Shown piece by piece: positions 1,094 to 23,937 of a stretch of DNA of 64,000 nucleotides (positions are counted from its first letter, which is position 1; every line of letters starts with the position of its first letter). The DNA lies in IMG/VR virus record IMGVR_UViG_2914811602_000003, positions 4,528 through 68,527 of that record, one strand, 5' to 3'. The translations under genes were made by a program, and so were the position numbers. This stretch comes from a virus. Its lineage: Duplodnaviria > Caudoviricetes. The notes under the pieces are model-generated. The model did no database searches. It saw only the letters and a list, made by a program, of their open reading frames with translations, and had not been told where the DNA came from.

Positions 1094-1824
1094 TACAGGG
1101 GCTCCACGGCGAAGGTGCAGTCTCCGGTGCCTTTCTGGGTTCCGTAGTCGCACCACTTGCAGTTCATGACGTTAGGACGCGGCGGGAAGCGCGTGGCGCT
1201 GGTCATGGCGCGGAACTTGTCGATGAACTTGTTGAAAAGCTCCTGACCCTTGATGCGCTGGATGTGCTTCTCGGCCACAAGCCCTTTCTCGTCGGTGTAC
1301 CAGAGCTGAGTGGTGATGTCGGTGAGCGACGGGAACAGGAAGAACGCTAGCGCCGCGTAGAGCTGGGCTTGCTGGTTGTGCTTGATCTCGTTGCCGAAGC
1401 GCCGCCCGGTCTTGAAGTCGATGACGGTGGCGGTGAGCGGGTCGTGCAGGATCACGGCGTCGGCCTTGCAGCGCAGCCAGACGGTGTCGGCGTTCCAGGC
1501 GCACGGCTCCAGTTCTCGTGTCAGCGCCCATTCTTCCTCGACCAGGACTTTGCCCTCGCCATAGAACTCGCGCAGGAGTTCAAAGCGCTGGCTGAGTTGC
1601 TCCAGGCTCTTGTGCAGGGTCTCTGTGGTGCCGCGGATGTAGTTCTCGGCGTACTCGTGAACGCGCTGTCCCCGGATCAACGGGCTCGATTCCAGGGGCT
1701 CAGGCGTGGGCAGGCGGCGGATGTATTTCAGGTGTGCGGCATAGGGGCACTGCTCATAGAGCTTGAGCGCGGAGAAGGAGCAGGTCTTGAGGCATTCGGA
1801 CTCAGGGAATTGCGCAGGCGTCAT
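1093..1824 (-). CDS. PD-(D/E)XK nuclease (Cas4/RecB-like)
   Basis: Likely start MTPAQF at 1824. SFSALKLYEQCP, RGQRVH, KAD...VIDFKTG, QAQLYA and C-terminal CKWC...C cysteine cluster. Confidence 0.85.
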   Translation of the reverse strand: MTPAQFPESECLKTCSFSALKLYEQCPYAAHLKYIRRLPTPEPLESSPLIRGQRVHEYAENYIRGTTETLHKSLEQLSQRFELLREFYGEGKVLVEEEWALTRELEPCAWNADTVWLRCKADAVILHDPLTATVIDFKTGRRFGNEIKHNQQAQLYAALAFFLFPSLTDITTQLWYTDEKGLVAEKHIQRIKGQELFNKFIDKFRAMTSATRFPPRPNVMNCKWCDYGTQKGTGDCTFAVEPL

Positions 1825-1826
1825 GG

Positions 1827-2336
1827 TCAGTTGTCCCAGAAGTAGTGGCCGTCGATTTCGGTGACCGAGAAGCGCAGGTCGCCGTTCCAATAGTGCTCGC
1901 AGTCGAAGTAGGGCTGCGCCCATTCGGGGATTTCAGCCCACATCCCGGTCTCTTCGAGGTAGTCGTAGACGAAGTCTTCGTGCGAGTTGTATTGGCCCCG
2001 GTAGCGGTCTTGGAAGCTGTCGACGAGGTCGTCGGCATCACCTTCGTAGATTCCGAGGAACGCGCGCATGGCGTCGCCGTGCTCTTCGAGCGCTTGTCCA
2101 TAGGCGGCGACGGTTGCGATGGATTCGTATTCGTGGAGACTGGGGAAGCCTTCGTAGTCATGGATTGCCCATTCCTCGGCAGGCTCGCCGTATTTCTCGG
2201 CCGTGGGGGATTCGGCCAGCATGTCGTTGATCTCGTCCTGGATCATGTCAGCGTCCTGATCGGCATCGATCCAGGTGCCGTGGAGGACGCCGTTGTTGTA
2301 ATCGGAGAGCGAGGCGACGTAGATGCGTGGTGTCAT
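1827..2336 (-). CDS. ardA: Antirestriction protein ArdA
   Basis: Start MTPRIYVASLSDYNNGVLHGTWID, then EEWAIHDYEGF and PYFD..Y; very acidic, typical ArdA signatures. Confidence 0.88.
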   Translation of the reverse strand: MTPRIYVASLSDYNNGVLHGTWIDADQDADMIQDEINDMLAESPTAEKYGEPAEEWAIHDYEGFPSLHEYESIATVAAYGQALEEHGDAMRAFLGIYEGDADDLVDSFQDRYRGQYNSHEDFVYDYLEETGMWAEIPEWAQPYFDCEHYWNGDLRFSVTEIDGHYFWDN

Positions 2337-2480
2337 GGCGGTGTACCGGAGTAGTGTGGGACGGCGCGTGACGTGCGCCATTCGGTCCAATCACCGTGCG
2401 GAGGTGCATGAAGCTGGAGTGCTACGGCTTGGACGGCGGGCGTTATTGACGCCACCTCCCGCTGGGCGATGCCGTATCGT

Positions 2481-2720
2481 TCAGTGGTAGATGGCCGGGG
2501 CGTGCGGGTCGTCGTCGTAGGGCTGAGCGCTGTGGGTGAGCTCGAAGACCCGGCGCACATGCCGGGCGGCGAGCTCCCCGAGATCATCGCAGCGGGGGTC
2601 AAGTCCCGGATTCTTGAGCATCGTCATCAGCGCATCGAGCGAGGCTATGGTCAGCAGCGACGCCCGGTCTGGGTCGAGAATCTCCGAGTCGGACGATGTT
2701 TGCGTGGCTACTTGGTTCAT
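2481..2720 (-). CDS. Hypothetical protein (79 aa)
   Basis: ORF in operon direction; overlaps the 3' tail of the primase ORF. Confidence 0.5.
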   Translation of the reverse strand: MNQVATQTSSDSEILDPDRASLLTIASLDALMTMLKNPGLDPRCDDLGELAARHVRRVFELTHSAQPYDDDPHAPAIYH

Positions 2721-5052
2721 AGTTTCTCTGCGTGCTGATGAGTGGTTTTTCGAGGATCAGTCCTCTCATGAGCTGGCCGTTGAAGCGGGCCGGTTTCACT
2801 TCGAGGTCGTGGATGGTCAGCATCCGGGTGAACTTCGCGGGTGAGAAGTTCTTGCCCTGGAGGTAGTTGTAGAGTTTGTTCAGGTCATCACGGGGAATGC
2901 GATCGATCGGTTCCGGGGACTTGGCCCAATCACTGACGATCGAGAAGTATTCCTTGTAGGCGAGATCCGGGAGCCCCTGGCGGGTCTTGGAGTCGCCATC
3001 GATGAATTGCAGGAAGTAGTCGAGATCGCCGATCTTGAGGGCATGGAAGAAGGCGTGACTGCTGTTCTGCGCATGGCGGATGACGTCTTTGCGGTGCTGG
3101 TTTTCAAGGGGTCGAGTGACGGCTTGCCGGTCGACACGATAGTTGGCGAGGAACGCGGCAAAGTCATCGAGCTCGGAGTCAATGCGCTCGACCTCATCGA
3201 CTGAGATCAGCAGTGCCCGGCGTTGAGGTGGCGCGACATTGAATCGTCGGTCATTGGATTCGATCGGGAGCGGGTCATTGTGATTGGTGGCGATGATGAC
3301 GTTGTTGTAGAGCTTGCGCGTGACCGCATTGGCTCGCATTTTGCGAATTGAGGTACGGGTTTCCGTGATCATGTTCTTGAGCTTGTCCATGATCTTGTCG
3401 GAGTGCGCGCTTTCGGAGAGTTTGAACTCATCCAGCCAGTTGATGAGCGCCTTCTCCAGGTAGCCGTTGTAGTGCTCCTCGATATTGGGCGTGAGCACGG
3501 GCACAACATACTCGTCCCCGAAAAGGGGCCGCAAAATGCGCTCGAACAGCAAACCCTTGCCGGTGCCCGTGGTGCCGAAGAAGACCCAAGCGGTCTGGGT
3601 TTTCTCGCGGTACTGGAAGATGAAGGCCAGCCAGTTCAGGAAATGCTGCTTGGCGTCCGGCTCTGAGAGCAGGGAGTTGAGCACGCGGTCGATGGTCGGC
3701 GGGATGTCGTCAACGGGGTCATAGTTCTCCGTGAGGTAGCGCGTGGGTTTGAAGACGTTGACCCAGCGCTCATCGACGTCGATGACGCGCGGGTCGGTCG
3801 GATCGAATCGAACGTCCCAGTCCTCAATGATCTCGGGGGCTTCGGCGCCCCGCTGGGCCATGTAGTGCTGACACTTCTGGACGTTGCTGACCGGCCAAAG
3901 CTCGATGGTGTTGGCCTCGGTGTCATAGGCCGCGGTGAAGTAGGTGTCGGTCTCCCGATCGCGGAAGACGAGCGGAAGCGTGGTGCCGGAGCTCGGATCT
4001 TGGGCCGAGGCGCTTCGGGTGTACTGCGCATAGACATCGGGGGCGATGTCCTTGAGCCGGACGAAGGGCTCGTCCTTGAAGTTGCGCAGGATCTCGGGGT
4101 TGTCCTTGGGGAAGTAGTACGCCCAGGAGTCGCCGTGGTTGAGGTTGAGATAGACGAAGCCGCGAGCTTCCTGAACCCCGGTGACGAGCGCCCGTTCGGG
4201 GTTGGTCAGGATCTCGTAGTCGTTGACGAACTTGGTGCGCGCCGTGCGCTTGCGAAGCCCGGCCGCTTTGCGTAGCGCGTTGACGTGTTCGGTGATGCGC
4301 GCGCCGGTGGCGGCGGCGTCGACGTGGAACTTGAGCGAAGCGACGGCGTGGGTCTTGGTGACCAGCCGAATCCGGCGACCGGCGAGCGGATCTTCCAGCC
4401 CGTGAACGATGGGCGGCGCGATGTAGAGCAGCTTGTCGTTCTGGTTGGTGGTGACATCGAGCGGGTACTTGAGGCTGAGCCCGTTGGCGGTGAGGCTGAG
4501 CTGGTCTTTGAGCCCTGGGACGGTGAGGTTCCGGGACTTCGTCCATTCCTTGATGATGCTGGGCAGCACGGGCTTGTCGAGCAGGATGAAGACATGCCCG
4601 CGCAAGCCCTCGGGACGGGTGATCCCCGCCGAGGCGCTGTGCTGGAAGACGTAGGACACATGGCTCAGCGCCGGGTCGAGGGCGTTGAGCGCATGGTCGA
4701 CCGACTCGAAGCCTTCGGAGAAGTCGAAGTCCAGGCAGATCCACTGGGTCGGTGAGTGCGGGTTGGTGTGACCCGCACGCGACTCGTTGTTGAGCGGCCG
4801 ATCGAGGAGTCCCTTGAGGAGGACGCCTTGCTGGTCGGCGGCGCGTTGGACTTCCGCAAAGAAGGCGTCGATATCGGGGACGGGACGCCGATCGCTGCGG
4901 AAGTCCTTGATCATCGGGTAAGGGATTTCCTGCACACCGAAGGCATCCGCGCGGTACTCCTTGGTGATCGGACCTTGGGCGTAGAGAAAATCGATGAACA
5001 CGAGGGCTCTCCCGTTATTGGCGAAGCTGGAGCTCAAGTCTGGCGAGTGCAT
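2599..5052 (-). CDS. Primase-helicase: N-terminal AEP/primpol-like domain plus SF3 (DUF5906-type) NTPase
   Basis: WICLDFDF and GLRGHVFI in the N-half; FFGTTGTGKG (Walker A), NWLDEF (Walker B), IATNHND (motif C), RRFNV. True start may be GTG at 5001. Confidence 0.82.
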   Translation of the reverse strand: MHSPDLSSSFANNGRALVFIDFLYAQGPITKEYRADAFGVQEIPYPMIKDFRSDRRPVPDIDAFFAEVQRAADQQGVLLKGLLDRPLNNESRAGHTNPHSPTQWICLDFDFSEGFESVDHALNALDPALSHVSYVFQHSASAGITRPEGLRGHVFILLDKPVLPSIIKEWTKSRNLTVPGLKDQLSLTANGLSLKYPLDVTTNQNDKLLYIAPPIVHGLEDPLAGRRIRLVTKTHAVASLKFHVDAAATGARITEHVNALRKAAGLRKRTARTKFVNDYEILTNPERALVTGVQEARGFVYLNLNHGDSWAYYFPKDNPEILRNFKDEPFVRLKDIAPDVYAQYTRSASAQDPSSGTTLPLVFRDRETDTYFTAAYDTEANTIELWPVSNVQKCQHYMAQRGAEAPEIIEDWDVRFDPTDPRVIDVDERWVNVFKPTRYLTENYDPVDDIPPTIDRVLNSLLSEPDAKQHFLNWLAFIFQYREKTQTAWVFFGTTGTGKGLLFERILRPLFGDEYVVPVLTPNIEEHYNGYLEKALINWLDEFKLSESAHSDKIMDKLKNMITETRTSIRKMRANAVTRKLYNNVIIATNHNDPLPIESNDRRFNVAPPQRRALLISVDEVERIDSELDDFAAFLANYRVDRQAVTRPLENQHRKDVIRHAQNSSHAFFHALKIGDLDYFLQFIDGDSKTRQGLPDLAYKEYFSIVSDWAKSPEPIDRIPRDDLNKLYNYLQGKNFSPAKFTRMLTIHDLEVKPARFNGQLMRGLILEKPLISTQRNYEPSSHANIVRLGDSRPRPGVAADHSLARCADDDAQESGT

Positions 5053-5362
5053 TCCAGGCAGCGTGCGCCGCGTGCAAGAGTCCTGAGTCGGGATCGTGGG
5101 ACTCGTCGGTGAGCAGGTGGCGCAGGAGCGCGTCGGTGTAGCGCTCGCGTCCGTTGGGAACCGAGAGCCAGCCGTGGTCGGTGTACTTGTTCGCGCCGAA
5201 GGTACCGACGCGCGCGACCTCGGTCAGGGCACGGTTGAACCCGAGCAGCACGAGTCCGGTACGGGGCTTGTGCGCGTCGAGCTTGGCGCCTGGCGCGTGG
5301 GGGTCGCGGCCATGCGGGTCGGTTTCGGCGGTTGGGGTGTTGCATTCCAGGGACATCAGCAA
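5015..5362 (-). CDS. dATP/dGTP diphosphohydrolase domain protein (DUF5664-like)
   Basis: GAKLDAHKPR...EVARVGTFGANKY..GW...RYTDALLRH...DPDSGLLHAAHAAWNAL matches this family's pattern. Confidence 0.82.
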   Translation of the reverse strand: MLMSLECNTPTAETDPHGRDPHAPGAKLDAHKPRTGLVLLGFNRALTEVARVGTFGANKYTDHGWLSVPNGRERYTDALLRHLLTDESHDPDSGLLHAAHAAWNALARLELQLRQ

Positions 5363-5577
5363 ACCTCCAGCGCGTCGGGCCAGTCGCGGGTGGAGTTCGC
5401 TTCGTCGATGGTCGTGAATTTCTCGTGGAACTCACGGGCTTCGCGGACGAAGAGCTCGCCGTCGTAGTTGCAGTAGATGATGACCGGCGTCCCGTCGCGG
5501 GCATTGGTGCAGTCGACAGCGTGGGCAATGATTCGATAGGGCGCGCGGGTTTTAGCGTGGGTGGCGAGGGCGGTCAT
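5356..5577 (-). CDS. DUF1653-like small protein
   Basis: YRIIAHAVDCTN...VIIY...GELFVREAREFHEKF. Confidence 0.7.
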   Translation of the reverse strand: MTALATHAKTRAPYRIIAHAVDCTNARDGTPVIIYCNYDGELFVREAREFHEKFTTIDEANSTRDWPDALEVC

Positions 5578-5762
5578 GGAACCTCCAATCCGTGTTTTTT
5601 GAGGGTCTGCTTGTACTGAATCAGCCGATCAAGGAGGGTGATTTCTTTGTCGATCGCACAGCTCAAACGGGCGCGTAGCTGTTCGTTATCGCGGCGGAGT
5701 CGACGCAGTTCACGCTCAGGGTCAGCGGATGCCCTTGCTGGGTTGCGGGAGTTTTTGCCCAT
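5574..5762 (-). CDS. Hypothetical coiled-coil protein (62 aa)
   Basis: ORF in operon, overlapping both neighbours; heptad-like RELRRLRRDNEQLRARL. Confidence 0.5.
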   Translation of the reverse strand: MGKNSRNPARASADPERELRRLRRDNEQLRARLSCAIDKEITLLDRLIQYKQTLKKHGLEVP

Positions 5763-6279
5763 TGTATTGACCGCGCTTTGAGTACGAGGCGTTGTCGGGG
5801 ACCGGGGTGTTGAGACGCCAGAAGATGACCTGGCCGATCTTCATGCCGGGTTCCAGGCGCAGCGCCTGGTGCTGGAGCGTGTTTCTGAGCTCCAGGGTCA
5901 GGGTGGCGTCGCTCCAGCCGGGGTCGCCCCAACCGGCCAGCGAGTGCTCGATGCCGGAGCGCGCGACGCTGGACTTGAGCTTGAACTCGCAGCAGAGGTC
6001 GTTAGGGAGGTGGAAGGTCTCGACGGTGGCGGCGAGTACGAAGTCACCGGGCTCGAGTACCCAGCCGTTGTAGAGGTCGAGCGGCTTGGGGATGAGCACA
6101 GGGGACTCGCGGGCGGCAAGATTGACGATTGGGCGCTGGTCGCTTGGGTACAGGCGCTCGATCAGGAGCGTGGCGCCAAGACGCACGTCGATGGAGGCGC
6201 CGTTGACGTTGTCATGGGTGGTGTTCTGGATGACGCGCTGATCGACGAGATCGAGCAGCTCGGTGTGAGACAGCAGCAT
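5722..6279 (-). CDS. dcd: dCTP deaminase
   Basis: Start MLLSH with GGAG RBS; ASIDVRLG, KSSVARSG, GWGDPGW..TLTLE, GMKIGQ, Y..RGQYNGQ. Confidence 0.88.
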   Translation of the reverse strand: MLLSHTELLDLVDQRVIQNTTHDNVNGASIDVRLGATLLIERLYPSDQRPIVNLAARESPVLIPKPLDLYNGWVLEPGDFVLAATVETFHLPNDLCCEFKLKSSVARSGIEHSLAGWGDPGWSDATLTLELRNTLQHQALRLEPGMKIGQVIFWRLNTPVPDNASYSKRGQYNGQKLPQPSKGIR

Positions 6280-6340
6280 GAAGCACTCCAAAGGTAGGCG
6301 GGCGATCAGCCTACCAATGGAGCTTCAGGGGCTGCGGGGC

Positions 6341-7396
6341 TTAGATCGTCGCGGCTTCCTGGAAGCGACGGCCTCTCAGCTCCAGGGGCGTGGTGCTGAG
6401 GAGGTTTCCGGCGAAGAAGTTCAGGGAGTCCCGGACATGGAGCTCGAAGCAACCGGGGGTGGTCTCGACGATGAAGTACCCGTGGGAGGGCTCGTCAAAG
6501 CTGTAGGCGCTGTCTGCGGTGTAGGCGAGGTTGCGCGCTGAAAGCGTGCTCTCAAACGGGCGAATCCACTTGGCCCCGGCCGTGTCGTCCACGATGGCCC
6601 GTTCAAGGAACAGGCGCAGGTAGGTGTAGACCGACACCCATTCGAGTTCATGGAGTGCCTCGCGGAACGGGCCTGCAAAGTCCCCAAGACAGGGTTCGTC
6701 GTTGCCGAGGATATGCGGGTGGACCCGGTTCTGGTTGTCCCAGGAGAACGGCGCTTGGTCCCGCTGGCCGCGCACTGGAGCCAGGTGAACGGTGCCATCC
6801 GTCAGGCGGAGACTGACTTGGACGTCCTGGAGTGGGAACGATGGGATGCTCCCCGCGCCGAGTCCTCGGAGCCAGGCGTACGGGTTACGGTCTGGCCGCA
6901 TGAGCAGACCCGTGAACACCCAGCGGACGAAGGGGACGCCATAAGGGGCGTACCCTGTGGCGATACTCCCCGGCTTGAGGTTCGGGAGTCCCGTGAGGGC
7001 TCTGGTGAGATCCGCTTTGGTGACACGCTGCTCGCCCTGGAAGCCGGACGGGTAGCGGCGCAGTTGTTCCCGAGTGTTCGTCAGTTCGACGATGACTTGC
7101 CCTAAGTGGTACTTGGTGCGACGGTGCTGCCCTATGGCGTTCTCGACCAGGTTGTTAAGGGTGCCGCGCACGTTGGCGATGAACTGCTGTCCGTGGTGGT
7201 TTTCGGTGTCGTCGGGGATGTGCTGGTTTAGGGTGTTATCGAGGAGCTGATGCCAGGACTGAAAGTCTTGGATTTGGGCCTCGTGCCGGGCCACGAGCGC
7301 ATGGGTCTCCGCGTAGGAGCGCTCGTAGGCTTCGACGCTGTTCTTCAAACGCTGGTAGTTCGGATCGGTCCAGGCAAGTTCGTAGGCAAATGGCAT
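6341..7396 (-). CDS. Prokaryotic E2 (UBC-like) domain protein with N-terminal coiled coil
   Basis: VHPHILGNDEPCLG aligns residue for residue with the E2 consensus HPNI...G.ICL (Cys 10 residues after the first His); lies directly after the JAB and ThiF genes. Confidence 0.72.
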   Translation of the reverse strand: MPFAYELAWTDPNYQRLKNSVEAYERSYAETHALVARHEAQIQDFQSWHQLLDNTLNQHIPDDTENHHGQQFIANVRGTLNNLVENAIGQHRRTKYHLGQVIVELTNTREQLRRYPSGFQGEQRVTKADLTRALTGLPNLKPGSIATGYAPYGVPFVRWVFTGLLMRPDRNPYAWLRGLGAGSIPSFPLQDVQVSLRLTDGTVHLAPVRGQRDQAPFSWDNQNRVHPHILGNDEPCLGDFAGPFREALHELEWVSVYTYLRLFLERAIVDDTAGAKWIRPFESTLSARNLAYTADSAYSFDEPSHGYFIVETTPGCFELHVRDSLNFFAGNLLSTTPLELRGRRFQEAATI

Positions 7397-7399
7397 GGG

Positions 7400-8125
7400 T
7401 TAGTTTCCTTTCACGAAAAACGGGTCGCTGAGTTGGGCGTAAAAGCGATCTTCGAGGTCGTCGTAGGTGATGATCTCGTCGAGCCGGGGCTCCTGGCGCT
7501 TGGAGCTGATCGTGAAGTTCCGGGCATTGAAGACCGGGGGCTTGGCGCGACGCTCAATGACGCGCGCATCGATCAGCTCATCGAGGGCGTCGAAGAAGTC
7601 GATGTCGCGCAGATGTTCGTAGACGTCCCGATGGACACACTGGAAGACGACGCCCTGGCGCTTGTCGAAGACGTCGAGCTTGTAGTCGCCCTTCTTGTTG
7701 CGGATCTCGCGGATGAACCAGTCGGTGTGTTCGAGGTAGTCGCTCAGGTGCTCCTGGTCGGTGGGCGAGGGCGAGGCGGGCATGTTGACGTGGCTGTGCC
7801 CGTGGTAGCGCAGGTGGCTCGGGTCATCCCCGGCGTCCAGGATCTCCCCGGTGAGTTGCGCGATGGCGTTGGCGGTGATGTCGACGGTCGCGGCGGTGAC
7901 TTCCTGCTCGGGGATCAGGATCTTGTAGACGACATAGGCGTCCAGGTCTTCCTCGTAGCGCACGAGGCCGAACCAGGCCACCTCGACGTCCATCGCGCGC
8001 ACGAGATGGCGCACGGTGAGCTCGGCCTCGATCGTGAAGAGCACCATCGGGGGTTCAGCGCTTGGCGCTGGGTACAAGGGCGTGACGGCGGGCACGTTGG
8101 AGTTCTGGAAAGCGATCTTGGGCAT
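7400..8125 (-). CDS. JAB/MPN (JAMM) metallopeptidase
   Basis: Exact JAMM motif HSH-x7-S-x2-D (HSHVNMPASPSPTD) with upstream Glu in MDVEVAWFG. Confidence 0.87.
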   Translation of the reverse strand: MPKIAFQNSNVPAVTPLYPAPSAEPPMVLFTIEAELTVRHLVRAMDVEVAWFGLVRYEEDLDAYVVYKILIPEQEVTAATVDITANAIAQLTGEILDAGDDPSHLRYHGHSHVNMPASPSPTDQEHLSDYLEHTDWFIREIRNKKGDYKLDVFDKRQGVVFQCVHRDVYEHLRDIDFFDALDELIDARVIERRAKPPVFNARNFTISSKRQEPRLDEIITYDDLEDRFYAQLSDPFFVKGN

Positions 8126-8175
8126 GTTGGGCTCCAGGAATGAGGCGCCGGGACTCGGCGCCTGGGGCTAGGGGC

Positions 8176-8874
8176 TTAGCGCGACCACTCAGCCGTGGTG
8201 ACGATGAGCGGCTTGAAATACGCCTTGATGATGGCGCTGGCGCCTTCAGGGTTGGTCTTGGCGTTGATGAACTGCCACACGGCGAGATTGGCGATCAGCG
8301 CGGCGGTTGGGGCCACACTGAAGGGTGAGCCGCAGGCCGATACCTCGGCGTCCTCGTCCGCGCCCAGGGTGGCGAGGTACTGAGCGCGTTGCTCCTCGTC
8401 CGAGGGGTTGAAGGTGTAGATCACGCCATGCGTCGCGGCCATGCGCGTGTCGATGACACGCGGGATGTCGAAGCAGGGCGTGGGGAGGGCTTCGACGAGC
8501 TGGCGCCGGGTTTCGAGGCTATCGACCAGCAGAAAGACGGTGCCGTCGAGCTCGTGGATAGACTCGGGGGTGACGGCGACGGGCCGGAAGACCATCCCCT
8601 TGGGTACATGAGTCGGCGAGCAGCCGAGTTTGCGCACGGCCCAGTCGAAGAGTCCTTCGGTCTTGGGGATACCGATGTCACGGTGCATGAAAAGCTGATT
8701 GGCCAGGTTGTGCTCCTCGACGCGATCGGGGTCGAAGACCTTGATCCGGGTCAGCCCGAGCTCGACCAGGGTGGCGAAGACGCGGGAGCCGACCGCCCCG
8801 GCGCCGACGATGGTGATGCCGGTGTCGTGGTCGCGAGGGTTGAAGATTTCCTGATGGCGCAGTGTGCTGAGCAT
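8176..8874 (-). CDS. ThiF/E1-family adenylyltransferase
   Basis: ITIVGAGAVGS, FDPDRVEEHNLANQ, PKT, LLVDS, IDTRM; candidate catalytic Cys in EVSACG. Confidence 0.9.
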   Translation of the reverse strand: MLSTLRHQEIFNPRDHDTGITIVGAGAVGSRVFATLVELGLTRIKVFDPDRVEEHNLANQLFMHRDIGIPKTEGLFDWAVRKLGCSPTHVPKGMVFRPVAVTPESIHELDGTVFLLVDSLETRRQLVEALPTPCFDIPRVIDTRMAATHGVIYTFNPSDEEQRAQYLATLGADEDAEVSACGSPFSVAPTAALIANLAVWQFINAKTNPEGASAIIKAYFKPLIVTTAEWSR

Positions 8875-8879
8875 GGCGG

Positions 8880-9434
8880 TTACTCGGTAACGAGGATCAG
8901 TGTGTCGGTATCGGTTTCAGGGCGCAGGTAGAGCCCCCGGTAGTCGTTGTAGTGGGCGCGTTCGAGGTGGCGTTGCACGGATTCGGGGTCGTGGTGGATG
9001 AAGCCGTGCGCGGGCTTGACGCGCTGGGCGCCGACGCGCTGCACGGCGCGGCGGACGCTGTTGAGTCGCGGTTCGAGAAAGAGGCAGTTCTCGTTGTCGA
9101 GCACGAAGAGGTTGCTGACCGGTGTCAGCGGGTGCATGTACTGGTCGAGCATGGCCTCGATGTCGAGGACGTCGATGTCCTTGCCGCTGCGCACGGTGAG
9201 GATGCCGTCCATCTGGTGCAGCGCTTCGAGCCCGAAGCGCTTGTGGATGGTCTTGTTGCCGACCGGCTGCCCGTCCCGAACCCGGTGGACGCGCCCGTCC
9301 TGGATTGAGACATGCACGCCTTCGAGGGCGTACCAGGCCAGGTAGGGGTAGTCGCTGAGCTCGGCGATCCGAGCGGTTTGAATCAACGGATAGGCGGGTC
9401 GAGACTGTGCAGCTTGTCTTGGAGTCGGGTACAT
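8880..9434 (-). CDS. Degenerate ATP-dependent DNA ligase adenylation-domain homologue (probably inactive)
   Basis: Follows the short phage ligase pattern, but KxDG reads ALEG, DGE reads DGI and YEG reads YRG; no OB domain. Confidence 0.5.
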   Translation of the reverse strand: MYPTPRQAAQSRPAYPLIQTARIAELSDYPYLAWYALEGVHVSIQDGRVHRVRDGQPVGNKTIHKRFGLEALHQMDGILTVRSGKDIDVLDIEAMLDQYMHPLTPVSNLFVLDNENCLFLEPRLNSVRRAVQRVGAQRVKPAHGFIHHDPESVQRHLERAHYNDYRGLYLRPETDTDTLILVTE

Positions 9435-9679
9435 AGTTCTGAGAGCTCGGTGACGTGTTCGCAGAGACGGTGTGCATCGTCGAGCGCGGCTCCGATGATC
9501 TGGAAGCGGCGCTTGTGAACGGGCATGTGGAACGTGAGTTGGCGTTCCAGGACGTCGATGTAGTCGGCGGCGCGGATCAGCAGCGGGAGCGCCGGGCCGA
9601 GGTTCGGGTTGAAGTCGCGCAGGATCTGTTGCAGCGCGATGCCCTCATCGAGCAGTCCTTGGTAGAAGTTTTCATCCAC
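9383..9679 (-). CDS. Hypothetical helical protein
   Basis: Likely GTG start at 9679 behind GGAGGAG; 98 aa. Confidence 0.55.
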   Translation of the reverse strand: MDENFYQGLLDEGIALQQILRDFNPNLGPALPLLIRAADYIDVLERQLTFHMPVHKRRFQIIGAALDDAHRLCEHVTELSELCTRLQDKLHSLDPPIR

Positions 9680-9836
9680 GGAGCTCCTCCACGAGTTCTT
9701 CGAGGGTGTAGTGGCTGTTTTTGACGAGCTCTTGGAACACTTCCAGTTGCTCATCCCGAGAGAGCTCCCAGAAGGCGAGACTGAGCTCGCGGAGGGTCAC
9801 CTCGGCGGTGATGTCGACGTAGAGTTCGGCGGGCAT
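9672..9836 (-). CDS. Small hypothetical protein (54 aa, not in track)
   Basis: MPAELYVDITAEVTLRELSLAFWELSRDEQLEVFQELVKNSHYTLEELVEELRG; fills the operon gap. Confidence 0.55.
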   Translation of the reverse strand: MPAELYVDITAEVTLRELSLAFWELSRDEQLEVFQELVKNSHYTLEELVEELRG

Positions 9837-9846
9837 TGGGGGTCTC

Positions 9847-9996
9847 CTAGCGAACGTCGGCGTAGATGACTTGGGCGATGTAGGCGACGAGCACGGTGAG
9901 ATAGATCAGCGCGTGGCCTCCGTCCTTGTCGGCCATCGCCAGCGACATCCCGACGCCCGTCAGGAAGGTGATGAGCATGGTCAGGAATACGAGCAT
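9847..9996 (-). CDS. Small two-helix membrane protein (49 aa)
   Basis: MLVFLTMLITFLTGVGMSLAMADKDGGHALIYLTVLVAYIAQVIYADVR with GGAG upstream. Confidence 0.6.
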   Translation of the reverse strand: MLVFLTMLITFLTGVGMSLAMADKDGGHALIYLTVLVAYIAQVIYADVR

Positions 9997-10205
9997 GGAG
10001 TGGTCTCCTCGATGGGCTGGTATCGGACGACGCGCTTGAGGCCAAGCGCTCGGAGCAAGGCGCGAGGGGCTTGGCGCTGGCCGCGAGCGATCGAGCCGAT
10101 GTGGGTCGGGTGGTAGGGGAGGCTGAGTTGCTCGACGAGCTTGGCGTAGCCTCCGGTGTTCTGGGCGAGTGCCTTGACGTGTTCGCGCAGTTCTTCTTCG
10201 GTCAT
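9981..10205 (-). CDS. Putative HTH DNA-binding protein
   Basis: Start MTEEEL; helix-turn-helix-like segment HPTHIGSIARGQRQAPRALLRALGLKRVVRY. Confidence 0.5.
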   Translation of the reverse strand: MTEEELREHVKALAQNTGGYAKLVEQLSLPYHPTHIGSIARGQRQAPRALLRALGLKRVVRYQPIEETTPCSYS

Positions 10206-10579
10206 GCTGGGTTCTTGGGTCTGGGTTCGAGGGTGTGAGTCCAATGGATCGGGTGCCGGGGTCTAGGGGCTCGAAGCACTGGGCCTTGGGTTCTGATCCA
10301 TTCGCCGCCAATGGGCTCGGGGCGGTGCGCATACCAGAACCAGTCACCGTCCATGTCCATTGCCAACCAGTGCGCCCAGTCCGGGGCGTCGGCCCAGCGG
10401 GAGTCGGGCGGCGGCACCCGTGCATGAGCGACCCAGTGGTCGACCTCGGCGTCGGTCTCGCCAGTGAAGAGCCCTTCGCCCGCCGCGCGCTGAGCGATGG
10501 CTTCAAGCAGGTCGAGGAGCTGGGACGCAGGCGTGGTGCCTGGGGCGTACTCGACGGTGAGGATGAGCTGGGCTTTCAT
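10202..10579 (-). CDS. Phage hypothetical protein with Trp-rich WADAPDWAHWLAMDMDGDWFWY motif
   Basis: Recurrent phage early-gene motif; ATGA overlaps with neighbours. Confidence 0.65.
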   Translation of the reverse strand: MKAQLILTVEYAPGTTPASQLLDLLEAIAQRAAGEGLFTGETDAEVDHWVAHARVPPPDSRWADAPDWAHWLAMDMDGDWFWYAHRPEPIGGEWIRTQGPVLRAPRPRHPIHWTHTLEPRPKNPA

Positions 10580-10827
10580 TCCAGGGTCTCCGCAGATCCT
10601 TGAGCCAGTCGCAAACAGGCTTCGTCAGCCTCGTCCTCAGTGATGGGTTCGAGGAACGAGCGCTCGGTGAGCCAGAGCTGGTCCGTCTCAGGGTTCTCGG
10701 CGATGAGGCTGGCTCCATCGTCACAGTGGACTGCCACGATCTTGCACACGGCGAAGTCGCGATCAGCCGGTGGGAGGTTTTTGGCGAGGAAGGTGTCGAT
10801 GAAGTAGTGGCCGATGTAGTCCATCAA
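10576..10827 (-). CDS. Hypothetical protein (83 aa)
   Basis: ORF with GGAG RBS in operon direction. Confidence 0.6.
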   Translation of the reverse strand: MMDYIGHYFIDTFLAKNLPPADRDFAVCKIVAVHCDDGASLIAENPETDQLWLTERSFLEPITEDEADEACLRLAQGSAETLE

Positions 10828-10885
10828 GGTTCTCCGGGTGAGTGGGCGCCCCAGGCGCTCAGTCCTGGGGCTTGGCGCTGTGGGC

Positions 10886-11101
10886 TTAGGCGGCGCTCTT
10901 CGCGGCCTTGGCGAGCACGATCCGCGCGCCGTCGCTCAGGGTGGCGTCCTGGGCCGAGGCGTGACCGTTGACGGTCAGCTCTTCGTTCGATGACGGGGTG
11001 ATGTCGGCCGCTGCCAGGGCGTCGGCGACGGTGGCGCCGTCGTTCAGAGCGATCTCAGAAACCGAACCCGGAACGCGAACGATCTTGACGAACATGGTCA
11101 T
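10886..11101 (-). CDS. Ubiquitin-like (ThiS/MoaD beta-grasp) protein 1
   Basis: VKIVRVPG...LNDGATVADAL...LTVNG....LSDGARIVL beta-grasp pattern; ends AKAAKSAA. Confidence 0.8.
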   Translation of the reverse strand: MTMFVKIVRVPGSVSEIALNDGATVADALAAADITPSSNEELTVNGHASAQDATLSDGARIVLAKAAKSAA

Positions 11102-11183
11102 GGTGTTTTCTCTCTTTGTTGTGGGTGCTGGGTGGGTGGTGGATGCCCCGAGCGCTCGGGGCTCGGGGCTTGGCGCGTGGGGC

Positions 11184-11402
11184 TTAGCTCGCGCTCTTAG
11201 CTTGCTTGGCGAGGATCAGACGGTCGCCGTCGTTGAGTGGGTGGCCAACGACGACCGGATGACCGTTCACGGAAATCTCTTCCGAGCTGGACGGAGTGAT
11301 CGAGGCGGCGGTCAGGGCGTCTTCGACGGTGGCGCCTTCAGGCAGGCAGACTTCGGACACGGCGCCTGGGACTCGAACGACCTTTACGAACATCGCGGAC
11401 AT
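11184..11402 (-). CDS. Ubiquitin-like (ThiS/MoaD beta-grasp) protein 2
   Basis: Paralogue of 10886-11101 (44/69 identical by manual alignment); ends AKQAKSAS. Confidence 0.8.
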   Translation of the reverse strand: MSAMFVKVVRVPGAVSEVCLPEGATVEDALTAASITPSSSEEISVNGHPVVVGHPLNDGDRLILAKQAKSAS

Positions 11403-11447
11403 GGGTGTGTCTCCTGTGTTGACGGGCTATGGATGGGGCGTTGAGGG

Positions 11448-11621
11448 TCAGTGGCTGACGGCGTTGCGCTCGGTACCGCAGACCGAGCAGCGGACGACCG
11501 GAGGCTGTTCAGGCTTGGTGGCTTTGCGCGTGGGGTTGTGAACGCGCATCTGAGGCCCGTGGAGGGCGTCCTGCTGGGGGTGCTTACAGGTGCAGGGCTG
11601 GATCGTGCAGGGTTGCTTCAT
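11448..11621 (-). CDS. Small Cys/His-rich putative zinc-binding protein (57 aa, not in track)
   Basis: MKQPCTIQPCTCKHPQQDALHGPQMRVHNPTRKATKPEQPPVVRCSVCGTERNAVSH. Confidence 0.65.
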   Translation of the reverse strand: MKQPCTIQPCTCKHPQQDALHGPQMRVHNPTRKATKPEQPPVVRCSVCGTERNAVSH

Positions 11622-11731
11622 GGTGCTTGGCTCTTGGTGCTGAGTGCTGTGCGTTTTGCAGGGCGCACGAAAACGAACGCCGAGCTCTTGGGGCTCGGCG
11701 CTGAGTGTGAAGAACGGGGGAGTGGGGCTGC

Positions 11732-12316
11732 TTAGGCTTCGGTCAGAAGCGTGCGCAGGTGGTCGAGCGTGGTGTCCGGCAGTCCGAGCAGGCGGTTGCG
11801 GTCGACGTCAGAGAGCAGCTCCAGGGCATCGTCGACGGGCTCAGTGCGCGGGGGTGCGGTCGAGAGGCCGAGCGCGGTCGCCAGTTCGTTCTTGTTGTAG
11901 GGGGCCAGCTTATCCCAGGCTTCTTCGAGGGCGGCTCGGCGTCCGTACGGGAGCGTGAGCAGGATCGCGAGGAGCTGTTGCCAGGTGATGTTGTCGGCCA
12001 GCATGTGCCCTGGGATGCGGGCGATGTCGGAACTGCTCAGGTTGAGGTCAGGAATCGGTACGCTCGGCGGGGGCGCTTGGCGCGTGACGCTGAGCGCTTC
12101 GGCCAAGGTGCTGAGCGTGTCCTCGTCGGCGTGCTGGAAGACATCGTGGAGGTTGTTCTCGCTGACGATGGCGTCGAGCAGCTCGCCGCACTCGCGCTTG
12201 GTGCAGGACTCGACATACTCGGTCGGGTCGATCTCGAAGGTCTCGTCGAACTCGACGTCGAGGCTGACGGTCGTCTCGTAGTCGGAGTAGTAGGCGGTCT
12301 TGGTGAAGCTGGGCAT
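11732..12316 (-). CDS. Hypothetical acidic protein (194 aa)
   Basis: Long ORF with phage codon usage; first gene after the AT-rich region at 12.4 kb. Confidence 0.65.
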   Translation of the reverse strand: MPSFTKTAYYSDYETTVSLDVEFDETFEIDPTEYVESCTKRECGELLDAIVSENNLHDVFQHADEDTLSTLAEALSVTRQAPPPSVPIPDLNLSSSDIARIPGHMLADNITWQQLLAILLTLPYGRRAALEEAWDKLAPYNKNELATALGLSTAPPRTEPVDDALELLSDVDRNRLLGLPDTTLDHLRTLLTEA

Positions 12317-12390
12317 GTTACGGCTCTCGCTGAGAATTGAGGGTTTGGAGCTGAGCGTCGAGGGGCTTGGACTTCGCGCTTGGGGCTTGG

Positions 12391-12530
12391 CGTAACTTCG
12401 TAACGGCTAAGTGCTTGGTTTGCTTTGAGAAACACTTGTTACATTTATTTTCTGTTTAGTTGTGAAGTACCTCTTTTGTGATTTCAAAAAATTGTTTTAT
12501 GGGGAGCAGATGCCAGGGTGAATTCGTAAC
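12391..12530 (-). promoter_or_regulatory. AT-rich promoter/operator region with GTAAC repeats
   Basis: Minus strand TTCACA-17 nt-TGTAAC plus ACTTAGCCGTTACG; four GTAAC/GTTAC cores; same arrangement recurs at 29.4 kb. Confidence 0.5.
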
Positions 12531-12538
12531 AGCCACAC

Positions 12539-13093
12539 TCAGTCGACGCCGAGCTGTCTGTACGCCATCTGCACCAGCGCCGCCTGCTTGACGGCGTCGT
12601 CTGTCGCGCTATGCGCCACGCCTGGGTTGGGAGGCGCTGGGATCTCGTCGCCGAAGGCGAGATCGAGGATCGTCCTCACTGACCGCGACATGAAGTATTT
12701 GAAGGGGAACACGATGTTCTCCTGGTGGAAGGCATCGCGCAGGATCACGACGTCGAAGTCAGGATCTTTGGCCCAGACGCGATGCGGCACCGGGCTGAGC
12801 GCCTGGTGCCAGGCGTTGAACCGCGTGAGCGCAGCTCTGAGCGCCTCGTGCGGCCCCGCGAGGAAAGCGTTCTGCGCGTCTTTCGACTGACTCAGCCACC
12901 AGAGCACGGTGCTCGGCTCGATCGCGCGACCGGCGCGATGGTTACTCTCCAAGCTGATATTGGCGGCGAAGGTCGAGACGACCTCTCCGGGCTCAGCGCC
13001 TAGATCGAAGAAGCAGGCGCCGATCGAGAGCACGGCGGCGCGTGGGCTGGTGCCCATCGTCTCGATGTCGACCATTACTCCGGGCTGGTGCAT
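12539..13093 (-). CDS. DEDDh 3'-5' exonuclease (Rv2179c/DUF5051-like)
   Basis: VMVDIETMG...VLSIGA...VWAKDPDFDVVIL...HSATDDA. Confidence 0.85.
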   Translation of the reverse strand: MHQPGVMVDIETMGTSPRAAVLSIGACFFDLGAEPGEVVSTFAANISLESNHRAGRAIEPSTVLWWLSQSKDAQNAFLAGPHEALRAALTRFNAWHQALSPVPHRVWAKDPDFDVVILRDAFHQENIVFPFKYFMSRSVRTILDLAFGDEIPAPPNPGVAHSATDDAVKQAALVQMAYRQLGVD

Positions 13094-13236
13094 AACAGGT
13101 GCTCGCGTAGTTGCAGGATGCCTTCGCACGTCTGGCGATCGAGACCGGTGACAAACATCAGCTCATCGGCGTTGACGATCCCGTCGAGCAGCTCCAGGAG
13201 CGCGGATCTCAGCTCCTGGCACGAGGGCTTGGTCAT
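13075..13236 (-). CDS. Small hypothetical protein (53 aa)
   Basis: MTKPSCQELRSALLELLDG...; ATGA overlap with upstream gene. Confidence 0.45.
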   Translation of the reverse strand: MTKPSCQELRSALLELLDGIVNADELMFVTGLDRQTCEGILQLREHLLCTSPE

Positions 13237-13439
13237 TGGGTCCGGCATTCGGCGTGGTACTCCTGGATGTCGCGTCGACGGTCGTGGCAGATGTGGGTAG
13301 CCAGCTCGTGAATGATCAGATCGAGGTTGTACCGGAGCTTCGGTTTGCGCGAGATCGCGTTGACGAGATCCCGTACCTCCCAGGTTTCCTCGATCTCCTC
13401 GCGCATCCGGTCGACGCTTTGGAGGTAGCGGTAGCTCAT
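13233..13439 (-). CDS. Hypothetical protein (68 aa)
   Basis: ATGA-coupled ORF in operon. Confidence 0.55.
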   Translation of the reverse strand: MSYRYLQSVDRMREEIEETWEVRDLVNAISRKPKLRYNLDLIIHELATHICHDRRRDIQEYHAECRTQ

Positions 13440-13645
13440 TGGCCAATCTCCAGGTTGGTGGGCAACGCGCCATGATCTCGGGGGTCGCGCGTGGGCATCC
13501 CCAAGGGCGCGTTTTCTATGCGCGGGCGCCAGGCGCTTGGGTCGTAGAAGACAGGGTAGGTAGGGACGTAATCGCGAGCGGCTTCTTTAGGGCTTCGGGT
13601 GTAGATCGGGCGCGTGGTCATGTCATGAGGCGAATGTCGATTCAT
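13436..13645 (-). CDS. Hypothetical protein (69 aa; start uncertain)
   Basis: ORF in operon direction. Confidence 0.45.
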   Translation of the reverse strand: MNRHSPHDMTTRPIYTRSPKEAARDYVPTYPVFYDPSAWRPRIENAPLGMPTRDPRDHGALPTNLEIGQ

Positions 13646-13708
13646 GGTCGTCGTGCAAAGGTTGCGGAACTCGGCGCTTATGCTGCGTGCTCGGCGCTTG
13701 GGGCTGCC

Positions 13709-13900
13709 CTAATACGGGAACCAGTCAAGTTCCTCAGGGTCGATTCTCAGCGCTTGGCACTCGGCGCTGAGGAACCGCTCCAGGATCGTGATGTAGGCAC
13801 TGACGGTTCGGTTGCTCTGCGTGTAGTGCTCAGGGATCGGCGCGTAGAACTCCACACAACCGGTCTCCCGGTAGTGGTCGAGACATTCATCGGGGGTCAT
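13709..13900 (-). CDS. Hypothetical protein (63 aa)
   Basis: ORF with GGAG RBS directly downstream of the polymerase. Confidence 0.55.
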   Translation of the reverse strand: MTPDECLDHYRETGCVEFYAPIPEHYTQSNRTVSAYITILERFLSAECQALRIDPEELDWFPY

Positions 13901-13933
13901 GGGGATCTCCGAGGCCGTCCGTGGCCAGTAGGG

Positions 13934-15721
13934 TCATTTAGAGTAGTTCTGTGCCCAACCGCCCTCGGCATCGAGCGGCAGGTCAGGTGCCCAGCTCGGT
14001 GGCTGGCGCATGATGGCGAGCATCTCGTCCATAGCGCTTGGCGCTCGGTCCGTGGGGGCGATGGCGATGACCTCGTCGTGGGTACTGCCGACGACGGTCA
14101 CGCCGTCCAGGGCGTCGATCTGGAGCTTCTGCTCGAAGACGATGTGCCGAGCAAGGGACTGCACGATGTTCTCGTCGAAGAGCCCAGGGGTCAGCTTGTG
14201 GTGCCCCATGTAGCGCCAGGACTCCGTCTCGTGGTCCCACTTGAGCCCGGTGTAGAGGAGGTGCGTGCCGTTGGGCATCTCGACGCACTCGTGCTTGAGC
14301 ACCACGGGGCCAAGGACCGTGTGGTTGTTCTCGTCGAGCATGGTCGGAATCAGCTCGCCGAGGGTCTTCCACATGGCCACGATGGCGTGGTTGTTGCGCC
14401 GCCAGGTCATGACGGTCTGGTAGGCTTCCTCGTCGGTCATGCGGACGGGTGGGGCACCCATGAAGCCCAGCGCGCAGACGGTCTGGAACTTCTTCCAGCC
14501 CATCGAGAACCCGAGACCCAGGGAGAGGAGTTTCCCGAACTGACGTTCGTCCGGGTGCGTCTTCTTCGTCACCTTGTACCCGAAGTGAGCGCTGGCAACG
14601 TGTGAGTAGACGTCGCCGCCGTCTCTGAGCACCTGGAGCACGTCTTCCTGTCCGGCGAACCAGGCGTTCACGCGCAGCTCAATGTTCGAGCTGTCGGCGA
14701 CCAGGACTTGGTACCCAGGCGGGGCTTCGAGGCAGAGCCGGGTGGCCGAGCCTCGCACCAGGTTCTGGACGTTCAAGCCGCCGCCGCCACTCGCCCGCCC
14801 GGTATGAGCGCCCCAGTAGTTCTGAAGCATGGGGAGCGTTCCATCTCCGAGCTTGGAGATGTTCTTGAAGCGCTGGGCTCGCTTGATGTCGGAGTTCGAC
14901 ATAGCCGCGAGCTTGGCCTTCCAGACGTGCTCAAGCTCCGGGTGCTGGGCTCTGAACCGGTTGAACTCGATGTCGTTCTTCGAGAACGCCCCGATCTCCT
15001 GGCCTTTCTCATTGAGCTTGGTGGGCGGCTCCAGGCCCAGGGTGTCTCGCACATAGGCCGAGAACTGCTGGTTGGATCTCAGCACCGAGGCCGGTACGCC
15101 AGAGGCGTCGATCACGCGCTGCTGCTCAGCTTCCAGCTCTTGGAGCCCGGCGCTGATAACCTCGTGGTTGATTCTCAGCACTCCGATCGAGGAGATTCGG
15201 CCGGTCAGACTCAAGAGCTTCTTCTCGACGTCCGGGAGCATGGGGTAGAGCAGGCGGTAGATGCCCCAGCAACCCATGACGTCGTTTAGGGCGTAGGAGG
15301 CCAGACGGTCGTAGAGATGCATGGGGAGCTGGCGCAGCCCCTTGGTCTCCTTGAGGTCGTCGCCCTTCTCGCCAAGATCCAGGAGCGGCATCAAGCGGGC
15401 GAGGTCAGCGTCTCCGCCGATGAGCGCTCGTGCGAGGCCCGCGGTGTCGACGAACTCAGCCGGTCGCACGCCGAACCGGTCGCAGAGAACCAGCGAGTCG
15501 AAGTAGGTATGGCTGATGAGCCGGGTGTCGGCCCAGTCGATCTTGGCGACGAAGTCCTGGAGCTGAGCGCCTGGCACCCAGAACGGAGCTTTGCCGTCGT
15601 CGAGCACGGCCATGCCGTGGATCAAGAAGCGGGGATCTCGGACGTATTCGACGCTGGAGAGCGTCTTCAAGCTGTAGTCGGAGGCGTAGTGCGTCTCCAG
15701 GTCGACGCAGAGTTCGCGCAT
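13934..15721 (-). CDS. polA: Phage family A DNA polymerase (3'-5' exo + polymerase, no 5'-3' exo)
   Basis: CVDLETHY (ExoI), HTGRASG, LVADSSNIELRV (motif A), RQFGKLLSLGLGF (motif B), STHDEVI (motif C). Confidence 0.93.
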   Translation of the reverse strand: MRELCVDLETHYASDYSLKTLSSVEYVRDPRFLIHGMAVLDDGKAPFWVPGAQLQDFVAKIDWADTRLISHTYFDSLVLCDRFGVRPAEFVDTAGLARALIGGDADLARLMPLLDLGEKGDDLKETKGLRQLPMHLYDRLASYALNDVMGCWGIYRLLYPMLPDVEKKLLSLTGRISSIGVLRINHEVISAGLQELEAEQQRVIDASGVPASVLRSNQQFSAYVRDTLGLEPPTKLNEKGQEIGAFSKNDIEFNRFRAQHPELEHVWKAKLAAMSNSDIKRAQRFKNISKLGDGTLPMLQNYWGAHTGRASGGGGLNVQNLVRGSATRLCLEAPPGYQVLVADSSNIELRVNAWFAGQEDVLQVLRDGGDVYSHVASAHFGYKVTKKTHPDERQFGKLLSLGLGFSMGWKKFQTVCALGFMGAPPVRMTDEEAYQTVMTWRRNNHAIVAMWKTLGELIPTMLDENNHTVLGPVVLKHECVEMPNGTHLLYTGLKWDHETESWRYMGHHKLTPGLFDENIVQSLARHIVFEQKLQIDALDGVTVVGSTHDEVIAIAPTDRAPSAMDEMLAIMRQPPSWAPDLPLDAEGGWAQNYSK

Positions 15722-15800
15722 GGTTGACCTCTATCGTTGCGAGGTGGATCGGAGCGGGGGAGTGTGCGGGGCGGGGGAGTGGGGCTGCCCCAGAAACGAG

Positions 15801-15825
15801 AAACCCCGCTCGGGGGCGGGGTTCT
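15801..15825 (-). terminator. Intrinsic terminator-like hairpin
   Basis: AACCCCGC/GCGGGGTT stem followed by TTCT on minus; the same stem recurs at 29826. Confidence 0.5.
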
Positions 15826-15981
15826 TGGGGCTTAGGGCGGACGAACCAGTTGGGTTAGGTGGAGTGGAGTGTGTAGAGGTTCATGCTCGCGCATTGCCCC
15901 ACCGAAACCGCGCGCCAAAGATGGAGATTGTGAGGGAAAGGGCTCAGATGGTCGCGGATGCGGCGAGCATGGCAGGTCGAA

Positions 15982-18053: not shown

Positions 18054-18068
18054 GGCGCTGGCTCTTGA

Positions 18069-22425: not shown

Positions 22426-22515
22426 CCGATGTTCTCTCCTTGGCTAAGCGTTTCTCGGCCTACGGCGGCACAGCACATCTTGCCGCCGCTGAAGTCAGGG
22501 GCTTCGGAATTGTGG

Positions 22516-23915: not shown

Positions 23916-23937
23916 TTTGAACTCCTAATTCTTGCAA

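Follow-up and report, generated by a model that had tools for sequence, protein, structure and literature searches.

The 64,000-nucleotide (nt) stretch of DNA analyzed here, which we call the window, covers positions 4,528 to 68,527 of the IMG/VR record IMGVR_UViG_2914811602_000003, a tailed virus of the class Caudoviricetes. Its minus strand encodes proteins that resemble each part of a ubiquitin-like conjugation pathway: an E2-like protein of 351 amino acids (aa; 6341..7396), a JAMM/MPN+ metallopeptidase of the JAB type (241 aa; 7400..8125), a minimal E1-like adenylating enzyme of the ThiF family (232 aa; 8176..8874), and two ubiquitin-like (Ubl) beta-grasp proteins, paralogue 1 (71 aa; 10886..11101) and paralogue 2 (72 aa; 11184..11402). 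A first-pass annotation of this DNA had assigned five genes to such a system, and all five lie where it placed them on that strand. The cassette genes are intact, co-directional open reading frames (ORFs) with tight spacing at the core (gaps of 3 and 5 nt; the JAB stop falls 3 nt ahead of the E2 start codon), and they are flanked by an exonuclease gene on one side and by dCTP deaminase and primase genes on the other. The phage setting and the replication operon described earlier are also borne out. The minus strand encodes a family A DNA polymerase (PolA), an Rv2179c-like exonuclease, a dCTP deaminase, a DUF5906/VapE-type primase-helicase, a Cas4-like nuclease, and an SNF2 helicase, and the plus strand encodes a large terminase, a P22-type portal, a capsid protein, a tail-tip fiber, an SLT-domain protein, and a product more than 2,800 aa long.

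Components of a putative ubiquitin-like cascade

The E1-like enzyme matches Pfam ThiF (PF00899) at 61.8 bits against a cut-off of 28.1 (E = 6.9e-17), in keeping with its first description as a ThiF-type E1 with a candidate cysteine in the motif SACG. Aligned with six other phage E1s, the window E1 keeps G24xG26xxG29, D48/D50, K71, and D118..R123; G24, G26, G29, K71, D118, and R123 are invariant across all seven sequences. C181, the cysteine of SACG, is invariant as well and, by alignment, would correspond to the catalytic position of ThiF or Uba5. The ThiF domain spans residues 18-206, so that a protein of 232 aa offers no room for an inserted Cys domain and consists of the adenylation domain alone. 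In PADLOC, the protein matches only the E1 part of CBASS E1-E2 models (best E = 5e-11). Distant relatives of this E1 are found in crAss-like phages and in Xanthomonas jumbo phages. The crAss-like phage cr128_1 (NC_055885.1, L013:3525-5651) has a ThiF-like gene beside one for a JAMM-motif protein (HSHNNMSTFFSGTD) in its replication region, and Xanthomonas phage PhiXhv-12 encodes a related ThiF (L012:4929-5612). The copies in Xanthomonas and Erwinia jumbo phages are annotated as 'thiamine biosynthesis protein', and no JAMM or HPH..C neighbor was detected beside these ThiF genes.

The JAB protein contains the complete JAMM motif E..HxHx7Sx2D (E48, H110-x-H112, S120, and D123), which upholds the earlier description of a perfect motif, and the residues H, S, H, M, S, and D of the pattern HSH..M....S..D are invariant across 19 members of its family. 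Pfam Prok-JAB reaches 15.6 bits on this protein, under the cut-off of 25, and a profile built from five family sequences has no match in the PDB. With the 19-member profile, the top 12 PDB matches are all MPN+ enzymes at weak E-values of 0.004-0.16; they include an archaeal Rpn11-like protein (6fju, E = 0.004), JAMM1 (0.025), Rpn11 (≈0.1), and BRCC36. Atlas neighbors of the JAB and the Ubl are 83-100% viral, and some of those of the JAB carry Prok-JAB.

The two Ubl proteins are 63% identical to one another and end in ..LAKAAKSAA (paralogue 1) and ..LAKQAKSAS (paralogue 2). They had been noted as co-directional beta-grasp paralogues about 2 kb upstream, a description that fits what we find. Pfam gives weak ThiS, SAMP2, and RnfH matches for paralogue 1, and paralogue 2 is recognized by Pfam, by the family profile, and through its Atlas model, which superimposes on a ThiS-family cluster with a TM of 0.85. 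The best match of the 22-member Ubl profile is SAMP2 (5lda_B, E = 1.8e-7), followed by PF1061, RnfH, MoaD, and ThiS. Among relatives of the main class, described below, the Ubls terminate in ..AKG plus a stub of N, NG, NA, NV, or NS or, in one case, N with a 22-residue Lys/Pro/Ala tail, and in a divergent class ..SG precedes a final C, S, R, or RA. BilA, the Ubl of the Bil system, is made as a precursor that the JAB protein BilC trims, exposing a reactive C-terminus (PMC10557695). By analogy, a conserved Gly with a variable stub is the pattern of precursors processed by deubiquitinases (DUBs), which suggests that the JAB trims the Ubls. The long-tailed protein (L032:1442-1723, plus strand) runs on past ..QGAKGN into its 22-residue Lys/Pro/Ala-rich tail (AAKKPAAKPVKKPASKPAKKPAKK); this natural long precursor would require processing. 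In two other viral contigs, the cassette Ubl has a further, more diverged beta-grasp ORF immediately upstream (L017:6405-6620 and L038:10913-11131, both minus strand; tails ..FMYG and ..TGAT), and tandem Ubl paralogues thus recur in this phage group.

The E2-like protein was assigned from structure models, a fold search, and motif counts. In the full-length model, residues 1-115 form an antiparallel coiled-coil hairpin of two long helices (12-59 and 67-113), residues 118-279 form a UBC-like domain, and residues 280-351 form a beta-rich C-terminal extension. Residues 118-351, folded alone with 122 homologues, give a model with a pLDDT of 96.5. An exhaustive structural comparison of this C-terminal domain with 48,161 PDB representative chains returned a top 50 made up almost entirely of UBC, UEV, and RWD folds (Z 5.0-7.0, ≈90-135 residues aligned). 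UBE2E1 (3bzh_A, Z 7.0 over 117 residues), the Tsg101 UEV domain (6.6), and UbcH5c (6.5) match best, and BubB (9eav_D, 5.9) and Cap2 (5.8) stand lower in the list. Foldseek with the same domain yields weak E-values (0.07 or worse) in a list enriched in E2s. The full-length model finds only coiled-coil matches in Foldseek and VIA searches, and the full-length family profile likewise finds only coiled-coil proteins among PDB sequences.

The peptide HPHILGNDEPC, which had been singled out together with the coiled coil in the first-pass annotation, corresponds to H226-C236 of this protein. The pattern H226-P227-H228-x7-C236 lies between the beta-meander and helix 2 in the model and is invariant in the 9 closest homologues; an HPH..C motif is present in 151 of 155 E2-family proteins. 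We take its HPH-to-Cys spacing to equal that of UbcH5. Because the list of fold matches is homogeneous and the HPH-x7-Cys site is placed between the beta-meander and helix 2, the best reading of the 6341-7396 product is a UBC-like E2, as first supposed. The case for it is moderately strong and short of proof, since profile methods give no support and the Z scores are middling. The family comprises 177 representative clusters at E<=1e-3, with protein lengths of ≈270 to 650 aa, and its window member has no Pfam, NCBIfam, PHROG, or PADLOC match. Neither the region, at the nucleotide level, nor the E2 protein has a match in a phage collection, and a scan of species-representative genome contigs with the E2 alignment found nothing. 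The coiled-coil hairpin and the variable C-terminal extension probably choose the partner.

Conservation of the cassette and its place in the prophage

To locate relatives, we used a DNA pattern for HPH-x6-PC-x-GDF, which identified 28 viral contigs. Ubl, E1, JAB, and E2 are adjacent in 13 of these loci, as judged with local hidden Markov models (HMMs), all on uncultured viral contigs. Five further loci form a divergent class with all four parts in the order Ubl-E2-JAB-x-E1, in which a Ubl-like ORF of 67-78 aa and an E2 lengthened to 447-575 aa are accompanied by a JAMM-motif protein and an E1. Most of the remaining pattern loci end early, at a contig end or at the edge of the stretch examined. 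In the relatives, the Ubl gene stands directly before E1 or E2. Wherever coverage of a locus is good, the E1 and Ubl occur together with a UBC-like protein bearing the invariant HPH..C and with a JAMM peptidase. A PolA homologous to that of the window adjoins the cassette in 11 loci, and several loci share the primase, Cas4-like, and SNF2 genes. The Ubl-E1-JAB-E2 set is a conserved phage module rather than a chance association or recent cargo, since it is contiguous in at least 13 viral contigs, usually beside the same replication genes. That at least 13 other viral contigs have a Ubl right next to the E1-JAB-E2 trio also settles a point on which the first-pass annotation had made its proposal depend.

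The same annotation had argued that the set was native rather than recent cargo from its phage-like GC content and from heptamer repeats at gene ends. The conclusion stands on the conserved synteny; GC and heptamers contribute nothing to it. The GC content of the cassette is 0.63-0.65 and that of the contig 0.634, with no separation between phage and host, and a heptamer test across the window found neither over-representation nor placement at gene ends. A single heptamer, CAAGCGC, is strand-polar (45 co-oriented sites versus 10), and its sites lie inside genes. This heptamer (the core of GCCAAGCGC) follows transcription on both arms (window 1-16000 and 30000-64000) and is rare in the 16-26.5 kb island, with 4 sites; its polarity may simply be codon usage.

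The element is an integrated podovirus-like prophage of a gammaproteobacterium. The window corresponds to G000:C1:352844-416843, which places it on a contig of 528 kb; the genome measures 4.58 Mb and is 99.99% complete. Chromosomal genes of ordinary kind border the element on both sides, and a housekeeping gene among the flanks has its nearest named relatives in Chromatiaceae-like gammaproteobacterial metagenome-assembled genomes (85% identity). A 368-aa ORF ≈3.4 kb left of the window (L041:13318-14424; G000:C1:348317-349423), recognized by eye, is a putative integrase, and ordinary chromosomal genes, YchF among them, start again just right of the window (L042:1-700). With the putative integrase as the left edge and the chromosomal genes at the right, the prophage would measure ≈69 kb. 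No tRNA was found at the element junctions.

Between the replication and structural arms lies an insert of lower GC (down to 0.41) of ≈10 kb (window 15982-26500). It holds putative type I restriction-modification genes (hsdM, hsdS, and hsdR, so named from their sequences) and further low-GC3 ORFs, with every gene co-directional with the early genes. On the plus strand, after the SLT-domain protein, one uninterrupted reading frame, exceeding 2,828 aa (55514-64000), runs past the right end of the window and probably encodes a giant protein that is internal to the virion or serves in ejection.

A run of small ORFs (candidates of 184, 123, 54, 87, 125, and 83 aa; 8880..10827, minus strand) separates the Ubl genes from E1 in the window and falls outside the conserved cassette; none of the related loci has a homologue of these ORFs next to its cassette. 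The 184-aa ORF (8880-9434, minus strand) ends 5 nt ahead of the E1 start and has no family match. Just upstream of the Ubl genes is a 57-aa Cys-rich mini-ORF (CxxxxCxC ... CxxC; 11448..11621, minus strand), which likewise has no family match and no homologue beside cassettes elsewhere. A terminator-like hairpin with a 10-bp stem (11676..11702, minus strand) lies just upstream of that ORF and may mark the start of a transcription unit running from the Ubl genes to E2. The hairpin scan found no minus-strand terminator-like hairpin between 11621 and 5000, and the total hairpin count was not above that of shuffled controls. The position of the cassette within the replication operon suggests that it is expressed together with the replication genes.

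The host chromosome also encodes ubiquitin-like machinery of its own. Two anti-phage 6A-MBL cap2_3 proteins, which are E2-E1-JAB fusions, score 688 and 644 bits against a cut-off of 320 (G000:C34:362093-364666, L043:5097-7667; G000:C56:193921-196230, L044:4922-7228), and there is a JAB-E1 fusion of 461 aa (G000:C23:233590-234975, L045). Such cap2_3 proteins are rare in the host's class, occurring in 7 of 300 sampled genomes.

A proposed phage-owned conjugation pathway and its alternatives

Four independent lines identify the four parts: the Pfam match of the E1, the profile of the Ubl, the JAMM motif and profile of the JAB, and the model and HPH..C motif of the E2. We therefore favor, with a probability of roughly 0.6, the interpretation that the phage owns a four-component ubiquitin-like conjugation pathway and expresses it with its DNA-replication genes. 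We infer every step of the chemistry. The JAMM peptidase would trim the short C-terminal tail of both beta-grasp precursors, after which the minimal ThiF-type E1 would adenylate the exposed Ubl C-terminus and load it onto the loop residue Cys181. The modifier would then move to Cys236 of the UBC-like E2, which, during infection, would attach it to lysine residues of proteins from either host or phage, with the coiled-coil hairpin and variable C-terminal extension serving as a specificity element. The JAB may reverse the mark too. For the phage, the benefit could lie in modulating host proteins and defenses or its own replication proteins. The specific roles first put forward, namely disabling defense enzymes, decoying host Ubl immunity, or tagging parts of the replisome, are speculation. 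An interplay with the Ubl-type immunity of this host is conceivable given its two 6A-MBL cap2_3 proteins, a circumstantial association that is not evidence.

Several observations weigh against this interpretation. The assignment of the E2, which is drawn from a structural model, depends on Z scores of 5-7, in the middling range; no Pfam E2/UBC family (UQ_con, Prok-E2) is detected in the window E2 or in 122 family members, and an hhalign comparison of the E2 core with the E2 region of eight 6A cap2_3 proteins gives a probability of 0.2, that is, no similarity. The E1, only 232 aa long, lacks both a separate Cys domain and a UFD domain, and it is without the Arg of the NLxRQ motif, reading NLANQ in the window and marine relatives and NLSST, NLPNQ, or NLSGQ in other phage E1s. 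The window Ubl genes are 2 kb from the enzymes, with unrelated small ORFs between them, and only here are they unlinked from E1. We found no E3 or target candidate. The main oddity is the Ubl tail, in which Ser replaces the conserved Gly: the window-clade Ubls have AKS followed by AA, AS, AG, or AK, and no Gly occupies the conserved site, the window tails KSAA and KSAS having none. All seven Ubls of this clade (two here and five from other samples) read AKS where other relatives read AKG, and the close homologues of paralogue 2 end in AKSAG, AKSAA, and AKSAK. In this clade, either the mature Ubl ends in Ser or the system has changed.

A broader version of the favored interpretation holds that tailed phages own a full E1-E2-DUB-Ubl cascade as part of their replication program, with a virus-specific E2 family and, in the window clade, a Ser-ended modifier, and that this cascade rewires or disarms host proteins during infection, possibly including the host E2-E1-JAB defenses. 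Taken as a whole, we advance this version tentatively and consider it rather doubtful.

Among the alternatives, the one that survives best is that the prophage carries the cassette as a defense or superinfection-exclusion module, which would tag the structural proteins of competitor phages in a Bil-like manner rather than act in the phage's own replication. In Bil, which is built from the same set of parts, a phage tail fiber is tagged (10.1101/2023.09.04.556158). The same prophage, moreover, contains the 10-kb low-GC island with type I restriction-modification and other defense-like genes. Prophages often carry defense genes. The cassette, however, lies outside the island, inside the replication operon, and beside PolA in 11 viral contigs, and PADLOC models miss the E2, JAB, and Ubl. 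Its families are also almost entirely viral; of ≈400 further genomes sampled from the host's class, none has the E2 family, which leaves the window genome as the only carrier in that sample. We accordingly regard a defense role as unlikely.

A second alternative dispenses with protein conjugation altogether and has the E1 activate the beta-grasp C-terminus for a thiocarboxylate sulfur carrier of the ThiS/MoaD/SAMP kind or for MccB-like nucleotidylation. The closeness of the Ubl profile to SAMP2, ThiS, and MoaD speaks for it, as do the best NCBIfam matches of the E1, which are ThiF models, the occurrence of MccB among the PDB matches of the E1, and a tail without Gly, atypical for conjugation. 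Nevertheless, those ThiF models score far under their cut-off (48.9 versus 275), an HPH..C UBC-like protein and a JAMM peptidase are present in every well-covered locus, and the Ubls have no Gly-Gly end. As had been stated of sulfur-transfer genes from the outset, none lies nearby: the scanned neighboring ORFs include no match to ThiG, MoaE, rhodanese, or cysteine desulfurase. Membership in the ThiS/MoaD sulfur-carrier systems was rejected on the last two grounds, and activation without conjugation has, in our estimate, little chance of being the right account.

Equally improbable is that the window prophage holds a decaying or repurposed relic whose Ubls are no longer E1 substrates and act, if at all, non-covalently: the Gly-to-Ser change in all seven window-clade Ubls, the duplicated Ubl, the 2-kb insertion, and the unlinking of the Ubl genes from E1 in the window alone would fit decay, but every ORF is intact, the catalytic residues are kept, the same-clade E2 homologues are full length at 37-71% identity, and the AKSA tail is retained among homologues from other samples that are 58-94% identical, which points to selection.

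If the phage-owned conjugation pathway is real, a viral full cascade beside replication genes would represent the other side of an arms race that uses the same chemistry, and the cassette would contribute an E2 family not seen before, along with a minimal E1. The prophage copy in a near-complete host genome with two 6A-MBL systems provides a concrete gene set in a natural host-phage pair, and the Ser-for-Gly tail bears directly on how strictly E1s and DUBs require glycine.

Comparison with known systems

To our knowledge, bacterial ubiquitin-like conjugation has been characterized only as host immunity (CBASS, Bil, and Bub). Several of these systems, and a few others, share parts with the phage cassette. 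In type II CBASS (Cap2/Cap3) and in 6A-MBL cap2_3, the E1, E2, and JAB chemistry is common to all. The phage proteins, in contrast, are separate rather than fused, and a dedicated beta-grasp Ubl takes the place of the CD-NTase as substrate. There is no CD-NTase, effector, or MBL neighbor, and PADLOC has no match on the neighboring ORFs; membership in type II CBASS was rejected in view of these PADLOC results and the lack of an E2-E1 fusion. The likeness to PRTRC operons drawn in the first-pass annotation did not hold: PRTRC_ThiF (TIGR03736) reaches 31.2 bits against a cut-off of 144.75, and the other PRTRC models match 0 of 10 ORFs, so that PRTRC membership was rejected. Of that original interpretation, the phage-owned Ubl/E1/JAB/E2 set native to the replication module remains, and the PRTRC analogy falls away along with the arguments from GC and heptamers.

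The archaeal sampylation system SAMP2/UbaA/JAMM1 is similar in that SAMP2 is the best solved relative of the phage Ubl family, the JAB profile matches JAMM1, and both systems use a small ThiF-like E1. We know of no E2 in sampylation, whereas the phage cassette always includes an E2-like protein, and the Ubl tails differ as well; SAMPs end in Gly-Gly and also carry sulfur. Bub (class 6e) is represented by BubB among the fold matches of the phage E2 domain. It works through oxyester intermediates; its E1 and E2 lack a catalytic Cys, its JAB is fused to an E1, and its Ubls have several domains (PMC11601596). In the phage cassette, by comparison, the E1 and E2 Cys are both invariant and the Ubl is single-domain.

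A phage-encoded beta-grasp and JAB pair is already familiar from lambdoid and T1 phages as TAPI (Ubl) and TAPK (JAB), class 5 of Iyer et al. 2006. That pair, however, is without E1 or E2 and is located in the tail module, not the replication module; the same study describes phage Ubl-JAB only as a tail-assembly pair (PMC1779556). Our literature search, whose incomplete coverage means that absence is not proven, returned no paper on a phage Ubl-E1-JAB-E2 cassette.

The closest overall resemblance in gene content is to Bil (BilABCD; operon class 6d of Iyer et al. 2006, PMC1779556), in which the small Ubl, E2, JAB, and E1 are likewise encoded by individual genes, and whose BilA-type precursors are matched by the Gly-plus-tail Ubls of the phage relatives. 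Unlike Bil, which is found in host defense islands, the phage cassette is part of a phage replication module. Its E2, which has a coiled-coil hairpin and a C-terminal extension, falls in a family of its own that Pfam does not cover, and its E1 consists of the adenylation domain only, without the mobile catalytic-Cys domain and without the NLxRQ Arg. The window-clade Ubl tail, furthermore, has Ser in place of a Gly for a DUB to expose. Overall, the cassette is Bil-like in its parts list only: that list is shared, and the genomic owner, the E2 family, the E1 architecture, and the Ubl tail differ.

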